Below, piece by piece: positions 14,353 to 46,320 of a DNA stretch of 64,000 nt (its first letter is position 1; each line of letters starts with the position of its first letter). The notes under the pieces were generated by a model, which had not been told where the DNA came from, did not search any database, and saw only the letters and a list, made by a program, of their open reading frames with translations. The DNA is taken from assembly GCF_030013205.1 (NCBI RefSeq), contig NZ_CP122648.1; one strand, written 5' to 3'. The stretch comes from Escherichia coli (GTDB taxonomy: Bacteria; Pseudomonadota; Gammaproteobacteria; Enterobacterales; Enterobacteriaceae). The translations under genes and the position numbers were made by a program.

Positions 14353-15363
14353 TTAGATATGGGTAACGATTTCTTTAATCAGCGGCGGACCTTTAAAAAT
14401 AAAACCAGAATAAATTTGCACCAGTGAGGCCCCCGCAGCAATCTTTTCACGCGCAGCGATAACCGAGTCGATGCCGCCAACACCGATGATCGGTAAGCGA
14501 CCATTTAATTCCTGTGATAAACGGCGAATAATTTCGGTGCTTTTTAACTGAAGCGGACGACCACTTAAGCCACCGGTTTGATCACAATTTTTCATTCCCT
14601 GAACCAGAGAACGATCGAGTGTGGTATTGGTTGCAATAACGCCATCAATATTATGGCGAACTAAACTATCGGCAACCTGGATCAATTCTTCTTCAGAAAG
14701 ATCCGGCGCGATCTTCACTGCGATCGGCACATATTTATGGTGCATCGCTTGCAAATCATTTTGCTTATTTTTAATCGCGGTTAAGAGATCATCCAGCGCT
14801 TCGCCATATTGCAGAGTACGTAATCCCGGTGTATTCGGCGATGAAATATTGATGGCGATATATCCCGCATAAGCATAGATTTTTTCCATACAAATCAGAT
14901 AGTCATCTTTACCCTGCTCCACCGGCGTATCTTTATTTTTGCCGATGTTAATACCCAGGACGCCATCATAATGGGCTTTTTTTACGTTCTCTACGAGGTT
15001 ATCAACGCCAAGATTATTAAAGCCCATACGGTTGATCAAACCTTCGGCATCTACCAGACGAAAGAGACGCGGCTTGTCATTACCTGGCTGTGGACGTGGC
15101 GTGACGGTACCGATCTCGATCGATCCAAATCCCATCGCGCCTAACGCGTCAATGCACTCCCCGTCTTTATCAAGACCGGCTGCCAGACCAAGCGGATTTT
15201 TAAACGTCAGGCCCATGCAGTTAACAGGTTTCGCAGGCACTTTCTGCCGCACCAGTGCTTCAAACGGCGTTCCTGTAATACGGCGTAATTGCTGAAAAGT
15301 AAACTCATGAGCGCGCTCTGGATCGAGCTGGAAAAGGGCTTTACGAACGAAGGGGTAGTACAT
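14353..15363 (-). CDS. pyrD: Dihydroorotate dehydrogenase (quinone) PyrD
   Basis: ORF track 14353..15390 trimmed to ATG at 15363 ([21 protein letters not shown]...); 336 aa; matches E. coli PyrD. Confidence 0.95.
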
Positions 15364-15448
15364 GAACTCTCCTGGATTCCCGGTGTGCAAACCGGGGGCG
15401 TATTATGTGCGAGTTCGGACCAAAAGGGAATTGACCTGTGGCAATAAA

Positions 15449-15464
15449 TAGCAAACGTTTTCTT
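15449..15464 (-). promoter_or_regulatory. PurR-box-like operator upstream of pyrD (TAGCAAACGTTTTCTT)
   Basis: 16-bp sequence matching 14/16 of the recalled PUR box (ACGCAAACGTTTTCTT) about 90 bp upstream of pyrD start; pyrD is a known PurR regulon member. Confidence 0.45.
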
Positions 15465-15599
15465 ATTGCGCTTTTTTTATGCTTTTTTTGGCTTTTCTTC
15501 CTCAGATAAATCATTTCGACTCGCGGGCCACCTCTGTCAGACTGACCGAATTGTTATCAATGTTAACAAAACAAGAACAATTGGTTATAAGGAGAGAGT

Positions 15600-16175
15600 A
15601 TGCGTGTCATCACCCTGGCGGGTAGTCCTCGCTTTCCTTCTCGCTCCAGCTCCTTGCTGGAATATGCGCGGGAAAAACTGAATGGCCTGGATGTAGAGGT
15701 TTATCACTGGAATCTGCAAAACTTTGCCCCGGAAGATCTGCTTTATGCTCGTTTCGATAGTCCGGCACTCAAGACCTTCACCGAACAACTGCAACAGGCC
15801 GATGGACTGATAGTCGCTACACCTGTGTATAAAGCCGCCTATTCCGGCGCGCTGAAAACCCTGCTCGACCTGCTGCCAGAACGCGCTTTGCAAGGCAAAG
15901 TGGTGCTACCACTGGCGACGGGCGGCACGGTGGCTCATCTGCTGGCGGTCGATTACGCCCTTAAACCAGTTTTAAGTGCGCTGAAAGCCCAGGAGATCCT
16001 GCACGGCGTGTTTGCCGATGACTCGCAAGTAATTGATTACCACCACAAACCCCAGTTCACGCCAAATCTGCAAACCCGTCTTGATACCGCGCTGGAAACT
16101 TTCTGGCAGGCATTGCATCGTCGGGATGTTCAGGTTCCTGACCTTCTGTCTCTGCGAGGTAATGCCCATGCGTAA
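15600..16175 (+). CDS. ssuE: NADPH-dependent FMN reductase SsuE
   Basis: 191-aa ORF MRVITLAGSPRFPSRSSSLLEYAREKL...; matches E. coli SsuE; first gene of ssuEADCB operon. Confidence 0.95.
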   Translation: MRVITLAGSPRFPSRSSSLLEYAREKLNGLDVEVYHWNLQNFAPEDLLYARFDSPALKTFTEQLQQADGLIVATPVYKAAYSGALKTLLDLLPERALQGKVVLPLATGGTVAHLLAVDYALKPVLSALKAQEILHGVFADDSQVIDYHHKPQFTPNLQTRLDTALETFWQALHRRDVQVPDLLSLRGNAHA

Positions 16176-43588: not shown

Positions 43589-44575
43589 CTAGTTGCCAGA
43601 AGCCAGCGAGGTTAGTTGCGCAAGCAGTTTCGCTGGTTCATCACCTAAAAGCTGTGCGTCAACAGGCAAATACCACCAATTTCCTTCGGCAAAGGCCAAG
43701 CATTTCACCGCATCTTTTTCAGTCATTACCAGCGTTTGCCCGGCGCTTACCAACGCGCTAACATCCGCATGGTTCAAAGACTGATGATCGGCCAGCGGTA
43801 CACATTTTTCCGGTTGTACGCCGCACATCTTCAGCGTGGCAAAAAAGCGCGGCGGATGTCCAATCCCCGCCATCGCCACTACATGTTCAAGCTGAGCAAC
43901 GTCACAACGCATACCGGTACGTAAATTCACCGCCTGACCCGGCAGCAGATGCATGGGGATTTCACCGCTGCGTGGGACACCGCCGTTGACGATTACCGCA
44001 TCAACCGACTTTAAGCGCCCCGCTCGCTCACGCATTGGCCCCGCCGGCAACCACCAGCCATTGCCAAAGCGACGCACACCATCAACAACGACAATTTCCA
44101 CATCACGCGCCAGACGGTAATGCTGTAAACCGTCGTCGGTTACGATGATCTGCACATCAGGGTGTTGCGCCAGAATGGCTTTTACCGCATCAGAACGCAC
44201 GGGAGAAACCGCAACGGGCGCGCCAGTGCGTTGATAAATCAACACAGGTTCATCACCCGCCTGTGCTGTGGTGGTATCTGCCGACAATAACAGCGGATAA
44301 GATTCAGCCTTACCACCATATCCCCGCGATACTACCCCCACGCGAATACCGCGCTGTTGCAGCTGTTCCACCAGCCAGACAACGACCGGGGTTTTTCCAT
44401 TGCCGCCTGCGGTGAGATTACCAACCACGACAACCGGTACGGGGGCACGCCAGGCGCGCTTCAGTTTTAGTTTATAGCAAAGACGGATCGCGCCACTCAC
44501 CAGGCCATACAACCAGGAGAGTGGCAGCAATAGCCGCCACAAAGGGGATTCACCAGACCAGATTTTTTCGATCAT
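43589..44575 (-). CDS. lpxK: Tetraacyldisaccharide 4'-kinase (lipid A)
   Basis: 328-aa [35 protein letters not shown]... with P-loop [12 protein letters not shown]; matches E. coli LpxK. Confidence 0.96.
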
Positions 44576-46320
44576 TGGCCAAACTGCATTTTGTGAAGTT
44601 GCGCGTAAACGCCACGGTGCTCAAGCAAATCGTTATGCGTACCGCGTTCCACAATGACACCATCCTCGACGACCACGATTTCGTCTGCCTTTTCAATGGT
44701 AGACAAGCGGTGGGCAATCACCAGAGAGGTACGGTTTTTCTGCAACTCATCCAATGCCGCCTGAATCGCACGTTCAGATTCGGTATCCAGCGCCGAGGTA
44801 GCTTCGTCCAGAATCAGAATCGGGCTATCACACAACAAGGCTCGAGCGATGGCAATACGCTGACGCTGACCGCCAGAGAGCAGCACGCCGTTTTCACCAA
44901 TCACTGTATCGAGACCGTTATCCATCTTATTGATGAAGTCCATGGCGTAGGCCATACGCGCCGCTTCTTCAATTTGCTCACGGCTGTACTGTTCAGTCCG
45001 TGCGTAAGCAATGTTGTTAGCAACAGTATCGTTAAACAAATGGACATTCTGCGACACCAGAGCAACCTGGTTACGTAACGACGCCAGGGTATACTCGCGC
45101 AGATCGTGACCATCCATCAGGATTTCGCCTTCATCAATATCGTAAAAACGCGTGATCAGGCTGGCGATGGTTGATTTACCCGAACCAGAGCGTCCAACCA
45201 GAGCAACCGTCTTCCCTGCCGGAATTTTCAGGTTGATGTTACGCAATGCGGGTACGTCACGTCCCGGATAAGTAAAGGTGACATTGCGGAATTCCACGTC
45301 GCCAGTCGCACGCTCGATCACGCGCTTACCTTCGTCTTTCTCCTGCTCACTGTCCAGAATGGTAAACAGCGTCTGACAAGCCGCCATACCGCGCTGGAAC
45401 TGGGCGTTAACGTTGGTCAGCGATTTCAGTGGACGCATCAGTGCAATCATTGAAGAGAAAACAACGGTAATCGTACCGGCAGTCAGGTTATCCATAACAC
45501 TTGGGAAGCTCGCCGCATACAGAACAAACGCCAGCGCCAAAGAGGCGATCAGCTGAATGATCGGATCAGAGATGGAAGAGGCTGAAACCATTTTCATCCC
45601 CTGAAGACGCATTCGGTTACTGACTTTATCGAAGCGTTTCGTTTCCACTTCCTGACCACCGAAAATCAATACTTCTTTGTGGCCCTTCAGCATTTGTTCT
45701 GCGCTGGTGGTCACCTGCCCCATGGTGTTCTGCATGTTTTTACTGATGTTACGAAAACGCTTCGATACAACGCGAATCGCAATCGAAACAATCGGTGCCA
45801 GCACAATCAAAATGATCGACAGTTGCCAGCTGTAATAGAACATCATGATGAACAGGCCGATGATCGACGCACCTTCACGCACAACAGTAATCAGTGCGCC
45901 GGAAGAAGAAGAAGCAACCTGTTCGGAATCGTAGGTGATACGTGACAACAGCGTACCCGTTGACTGTTTGTCAAAAAATGAAACAGGCATTCCCATCATG
46001 TGACCAAACAGGCGGCGACGCATGGTCATTACCACCTTTCCTGATACCCAGGAGATACAGTAGCTGGAGACATAGCTGGTGATACCACGTAAAATCATTA
46101 GCCCGATCACCACCAGCGGCATCCACACCAGCACGGAGCGATCTGTTTTACCAAAGCCATCATCAAGAAGTGGCTTAAGGAGCGATAACATGAAGGTATC
46201 GCTGGCTGCGTTGAGGATTAACGCTACGCCCGCCACGATCAGACCCGCTTTAAAAGGCGCAATGGTTGGCCACAGTCGGCGGAATGTCTGCCACGTAGAG
46301 AGATCTTTGTCGTTATGCAT
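44572..46320 (-). CDS. msbA: Lipid A export ABC transporter (flippase) MsbA
   Basis: 582-aa [44 protein letters not shown]...; Walker [13 protein letters not shown] signature LSGGQRQR; 4-bp overlap with lpxK start. Confidence 0.97.

Follow-up and report, generated by a model that had tools for sequence, protein, structure and literature searches.

The question raised by this locus is whether a 16-bp palindrome lying between two divergent genes, pyrD and ssuE, is the operator at which the purine repressor PurR acts on pyrD, and in which allelic form it is carried by this genome. PurR is a LacI-family dimer which binds DNA in its hypoxanthine- or guanine-loaded form, and its gene, purR, is expected in E. 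coli and maps outside the 64-kb window, as we term the whole stretch of 64,000 nucleotides of Escherichia coli DNA analysed here. We consider it very probable that positions 15449..15464 (minus strand) constitute the pyrD PurR operator, the counterpart of the site described in K-12, with PurR binding to the allele present in the window being predicted from its sequence. A sequence-only reading had called a PurR-like box at this position, a call that is supported by palindromic structure, by matrix scores and rank, by a K-12 ortholog detected by ChIP-chip and by conservation in 80 of 80 loci from as many other species.

The box is situated inside the 236-bp divergent spacer between pyrD (14353..15363, minus strand), encoding the 336-amino-acid quinone-dependent dihydroorotate dehydrogenase, and ssuE (15600..16175, plus strand), encoding an NADPH-dependent FMN reductase and the first gene of ssuEADCB. 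Both genes were assigned from their open reading frames and from annotation, that of a 100%-identical record in the case of pyrD; 601 bp of the window are 100% identical to E. coli strain CFSAN018748. The interval between the box and the pyrD ATG (15363, minus strand) is 85 bp, for which the sequence-only reading had estimated approximately 90 bp. On the plus strand the letters of 15449..15464 are TAGCAAACGTTTTCTT; the preferred reading is the pyrD-oriented one, AAGAAAACGTTTGCTA, because pyrD is located on the minus strand. In structure the box is an imperfect palindrome of 16 bp matching the PUR-box definition, ACGNAAACGTTTGCNT, with a central CpG at 15456/15457 bordered by AAA and TTT, AAAACGTTT, and the gene in whose control region it sits, pyrD, belongs to the PurR regulon. 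The central CpG step is the hinge-helix contact in established PurR-DNA structures. For comparison, the purF operator was taken as AAGAAAACGTTTGCGT, reverse complement ACGCAAACGTTTTCTT, from the list of Cho et al. 2011. With respect to this operator TAGCAAACGTTTTCTT is identical at 14 of 16 positions, with mismatches at positions 1 and 2, confirming the claimed 14/16 match to the PUR consensus. In the pyrD orientation, positions 1-14 are identical to this reference PUR box of cvpA-purF-ubiX, AAGAAAACGTTTGC.

A plain consensus match is, taken alone, not significant. With up to two mismatches allowed, the consensus occurs once in the 64 kb compared to 0.36 occurrences expected, and at least one match is observed in 31 of 100 shuffles, figures which taken by themselves would be compatible with a functionless chance match. 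As the consensus count was not significant, log-odds matrices were used instead, derived from the 27 ChIP-supported PurR motifs in Table 1 of Cho et al. with pyrD excluded. The oriented matrix places the box at the top of the window, at 13.96 bits (P = 5e-6), with a near-tie at 44669. A symmetrised matrix was added because PurR binds its palindrome as a dimer and because the oriented, MEME-style matrix over-penalises A16, a base equal to T1 of the other half-site. With the symmetrised matrix the box is again the best match in the window, at 15.35 bits (P = 2.8e-6) with the runner-up at 13.2 bits, passes the cut-off applied by Cho et al. (P < 1e-4) and stands 19th among 29 ChIP-supported sites, with the carAB and guaBA operators scoring lower. 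At 15.35 bits, 0.18 matches are expected per 64 kb and approximately 6e-4 per 236-bp spacer.

The second-best PurR matrix match, ACGACCACGATTTCGT at 44669..44684 (13.2-13.95 bits), lies within an msbA-like ABC-transporter ORF (44572..46320, minus strand) and was set aside; it is probably a chance occurrence, no PurR peak being reported there in K-12. That a match scoring equally with the oriented matrix is found inside coding sequence is a further point in favour of chance as the origin of the pyrD box as well. What decides against it is conservation. The sample consisted of 80 pyrD loci from other Enterobacteriaceae, obtained from a scan of representative genomes with PyrD, the loci not being phylogenetically independent of each other. 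In all 80, the best PurR-matrix match within 300 bp upstream of pyrD has the same orientation as in the window and a 5' end 100-113 nt before the pyrD ATG, with scores between 12.8 and 25.2 bits. When 82 distinct sequences were aligned, conservation reached at least 90% in the core, G.AAACG.TTGC, and the distal flank of the box was unconserved, at 0.05-0.4 bits per position. Eight positions (3, 6, 8, 9 and 11-14) are invariant in the 80 boxes and positions 2, 4, 10 and 15 vary freely. Since both position and sequence are conserved in 80 other species, the box is not a chance match; it is, in addition, the ortholog of a site bound in vivo. The chance reading is effectively refuted and is left with next to no probability.

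The pattern of constraint also follows the specificity of PurR. Per-position information in the orthologous boxes correlates with that in the 27 non-pyrD PurR sites (Spearman 0.81, P = 1.4e-4), the box being carried by 80 of 80 species, and this conservation profile is that which selection for PurR binding would produce, and shows purifying selection of a PurR-shaped kind. The identical 16-mer is also present in E. albertii, E. whittamii, a C. amalonaticus strain and Intestinirhabdus.

The counterpart in K-12 provides the experimental anchor. The pyrD PUR box of E. coli K-12 was reportedly first mapped by Wilson and Turnbough in 1990. In a K-12-type genome this position is occupied by ACGCAAACGTTTTCCG, reverse complement CGGAAAACGTTTGCGT, and CGGAAAACGTTTGCGT is the motif beneath the PurR ChIP-chip peak at pyrD in K-12 (Cho et al. 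2011, PMC3159470, Table 1). The window box is therefore the ortholog of a site at which PurR occupancy has been observed by experiment, the peak motif being at 1,003,889-1,003,904. Occupancy was detected with adenine only, at a log2 ratio of 1.01, among the weakest ChIP signals, and pyrD is listed as directly PurR-repressed (PMC3159470); PurR repression of pyrC and pyrD is weak relative to that of the pur genes (review, PMC6245113). Both the adenine-dependent occupancy and the weak repression are taken from the K-12 literature. The two boxes serve the same gene in the same orientation, at a distance from the pyrD promoter that is the same within 1 bp, and are identical at positions 3-14, where both are also identical to the purF operator, as well as in the adjoining promoter and leader sequence. 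They differ in that the linker is 1 bp shorter in the window, in the distal neighbour, which here is the ssuE spacer and not the end of ycbF, and in the outermost box positions, 1-2 (AA in the window, CG in K-12) and 15-16 (TA in the window, GT in K-12). The sequence-only reading had staked its claim on the motif being present upstream of K-12 pyrD and on an above-threshold score; K-12 has the motif and the score passes.

The differences at the box edges have a cost in matrix score. The K-12 allele scores 17.87 bits with the symmetrised and 21.06 bits with the oriented matrix, against 15.35 and 13.96 bits for the window allele, a deficit of 2.5 bits (symmetrised) to 7 bits (oriented) which is caused by T15, A16 and A2. 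It may be argued from the fall in oriented score, from 21.06 to 13.96 bits, from the occurrence of A16 in none of the 27 training sites and from the weak, adenine-dependent ChIP signal of K-12 itself that the box is a decayed remnant, in which the outer positions have drifted and PurR occupancy in vivo is negligible, leaving only start-site switching and the leader to control pyrD. We regard this as unlikely. With the symmetrised matrix, which is suited to a palindromic dimer site, the deficit is just 2.5 bits and the box outranks carAB and guaBA; the plus-strand sequence TAGCAAACGTTTTCTT is similar to two sites that PurR binds strongly, purMN and xanP, in which the first base is likewise T; the exact 16-mer has been kept in several species with diverged flanks; and the eight invariant core positions are all intact. 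The preferred reading, an operator that in the slightly weaker form found in the window would still be bound by PurR, is thus retained.

How PurR might act from this position depends on the geometry of the promoter. Proceeding from the box towards pyrD on the minus strand, a T-rich 12-nt linker, TTTATTGCCACA (15437..15448), delimited from the distribution of gaps in other genera, where it measures 11-13 or 22-24 nt, is followed by a block, GGTCAATTCC (15427..15436), which is at least 90% conserved and which every locus has at 71-73 nt from the ATG. This block overlaps a putative weak -35 hexamer, TTCCCT (15430..15425, minus strand), assigned by its 17-nt spacing to the -10. A sigma-70 consensus scan of 15330..15640 reported no promoter-like site, so that the -35 assignment stays putative. 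The single terminator-like match returned by the scan of 15330..15640 is the pyrD leader hairpin on the wrong strand and was rejected. Conservation of the GGTCAATTCC block across the 80 species exceeds what a weak -35 alone explains, and the block is partly inside the Rfam PyrD_leader model. The -10 hexamer, CATAAT (15402..15407, minus strand), was identified by sequence and conservation, and its position agrees with transcription starting 6-7 nt further on (PMC6524683).

Transcription of pyrD starts at C, 6-7 nt past the -10, at a high CTP/GTP ratio and at G, further downstream, when the ratio is low; a hairpin formed in the longer transcript blocks translation (PMC6524683). Applied to the window, this places the putative start window at 15393..15396 (minus strand), with C at 15396/15395 and G at 15393. 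Coordinate arithmetic using the same review (PMC6524683) indicates that the box spans about -54 to -69 from the C starts, with its centre at about -61, and lies upstream of the putative -35. The Rfam PyrD leader, RF02373, is matched over its full length (15358..15431, minus strand; model positions 1-74 of 74) at 97.9 bits (E = 1e-17), compared to a gathering score of 47, immediately upstream of pyrD. This leader, which was curated independently, adjoins the box in the pyrD control region; it operates at the RNA level, governed by start-site choice, whereas the PUR box is a DNA operator located 18 bp upstream and outside the model. An inverted repeat, CCCGG...CCGGG, forms the leader hairpin at 15379..15396, and the predicted folding of the C-start leader RNA is -10.3 kcal/mol compared to -3.1 for the G-start RNA. 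No differences between K-12 and the window are observed over 14978..15438. One other Rfam match, SNORA57, at 14 bits (E = 0.69), was discarded as noise. With a full-length PyrD_leader, K-12 identity across this interval and a hairpin that folds as expected, the proposal of the sequence-only reading that the pyrD control region is intact holds. The genome thus has a complete pyrD control region, consisting of operator, promoter and leader, in which the box is the already known pyrD PurR operator, conserved across enterics; the identification is correct but ordinary, and its importance is small beyond correct annotation.

Repression exerted from about -61 cannot operate by simple occlusion of the core promoter. 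When purines are plentiful, PurR would bind this imperfect palindrome of 16 bp at the central CpG, modestly lowering pyrD transcription and adding purine cross-control to the main, pyrimidine control, which works through the CTP/GTP-sensitive choice of start site and the leader hairpin and is likewise intact. The repression itself may proceed through bending of the DNA, or through blocking of contacts between the RNA polymerase alpha-subunit and the T-rich linker, and either form of interference would fit the weak repression reported. Operators of the purF type are located between or over the -35 and -10 and confer strong repression (PMC3159470), unlike the pyrD box, which lies upstream of the -35 and for which repression is weak (PMC6245113). 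The PUR box of carAB P1 is likewise a PurR site of the pyrimidine pathway upstream of the core promoter with modest repression (PMC6245113). The carAB box differs in being far more upstream, at -128.5 compared to about -61, and in functioning within a larger nucleoprotein complex. The difference extends to associated factors, as we know of no partners at the pyrD box like those of the carAB complex.

Spacing of the box in other genera bears on the same geometry. Spacing was anchored on GGTCAATTCC, since a first -10 pattern missed 25 loci. Between the box and GGTCAATTCC lie 11-13 nt in 30 loci and 22-24 nt in 49; no intermediate gap was observed, and the 10-11 nt added in the longer class show no conservation. 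The two gap classes are one helical turn apart, which is suggestive, in loci that are not phylogenetically independent, of a box whose helical phase with respect to the promoter stays the same from genus to genus. A fixed helical phase would fit a geometry-dependent mechanism of repression.

The same observations bear on whether the palindrome could belong to a different regulatory system, either as the target of another LacI-family regulator with a similar AAACGTTT core, such as Cra/FruR or RbsR, or as a site serving the ssuE promoter. A central CG palindrome is common to LacI-family operators, and in the ancestral layout the box is located 136-151 bp upstream of the ssuE ATG. The conservation profile, however, is specific to PurR, with G3 and C14 invariant and positions 2, 4, 10 and 15 free, as in the motif derived from unrelated promoters, and it is PurR which was cross-linked at the K-12 site. 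The fixed phase with respect to the pyrD promoter, moreover, persists where ssuE is not the neighbour, as in K-12 and in 12 of the 80 loci. Assignment to another regulator or to ssuE is consequently very improbable, and the box is treated below as the PurR operator of pyrD.

The genomic setting of the operator differs between E. coli lineages. The sequence-only reading had observed that pyrD is placed directly against the ssu operon; the 236-bp divergent spacer bears this out, and the arrangement is not peculiar to this genome. Of the 80 loci of other species, 68 have ssuE next to pyrD and divergent from it; ssuE is absent from that position in 12, including those of Pseudocitrobacter, S. arizonae and E. 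albertii. Within E. coli, pyrD-ssuE adjacency is found in 1352 of 5426 complete genomes, about a quarter, and in the remaining complete genomes, K-12 included, elfADCG-ycbUVF is located between the two genes. Adjacency is the ancestral layout of the Enterobacteriaceae and K-12 is derived, with the elf/ycb cluster inserted. Comparison of the junctions indicated that homology with K-12-type genomes on the pyrD side stops after TTTTC (15462) and resumes on the ssuE side at approximately 15532, and therefore that the cluster takes the place of a 69-bp spacer segment (15463..15531), which K-12-type E. coli lack, and borders directly on the distal end of the operator. In K-12-type genomes 8 nt separate the box from the ycbF stop codon. 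The strain used as reference throughout the experimental work, K-12, thus represents a derived state in which a fimbrial cluster is situated at the edge of the operator.

The window allele is the common, ancestral Escherichia form of the pyrD operator. Over a 45-bp stretch containing the box, 1327 E. coli genomes are at least 97% identical to the window, and in four other E. coli genomes of the window haplotype that were aligned the box is identical, with one common difference at 15439. At this linker position the window has T, and the four aligned genomes of the same haplotype and K-12 have C. In 1114 of the 1327 genomes of the same haplotype there is one mismatch in the 45-bp stretch, which spans 15439, and the equivalent position varies in other genera too (A/G in the pyrD orientation). 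This common, non-K-12 operator allele, a predicted PurR site, is the one with the lower score.

Three differences between K-12 and the window are clustered at 15445..15450, at the proximal edge of the box and immediately beside it on the pyrD side. A ycbF-like chaperone gene ends approximately 10 bp from the box, at the K-12 junction, both in Escherichia sp. E1V33 (78% amino acid identity) and in three Pseudocitrobacter loci (56-58% amino acid identity). In combination, the clustered differences and the ycbF-like junctions hint that the island haplotype may extend as far as the pyrD side of the operator and so take in the box, in which case the stronger box of K-12 could have come with the cluster. 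Extended to the species, E. coli would possess two non-equivalent pyrD operators, a weaker ancestral AAGAAAACGTTTGCTA and a stronger box of the elf/ycb haplotype, perhaps island-borne, a proposal to which we give a low likelihood on the sequence comparisons at hand. If it were true, E. coli lineages would not be alike in how strongly purines cross-control pyrD. In the ancestral haplotype, PurR bound approximately 140 bp upstream of ssuE might have an effect on the divergent ssu promoter as well.

Two further elements were noted in the spacer. Three phased T-tract units, TTATTGCGCTTTTTTT, TTTTTATGCTTTTTTT and TTTTTTGGCTTTTCTT, extend over 15463..15499 with spacings of 11 and 10 bp, starting at the distal edge of the box, within the 69-bp segment that K-12-type genomes lack. 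Repetition of T-tracts at the helical repeat suggests that the DNA between the divergent pyrD and ssuE promoters may be intrinsically curved. A literature search on the ssu promoter, together with a review of LTTRs, yielded no coordinates for the Cbl and CysB sites of ssuE. An inverted repeat, TTGTTATCA / TGTTAACAA, is present at 15551..15569, 31-49 bp upstream of the ssuE ATG, is conserved in K-12 and may be bound by a regulator of the ssu promoter.
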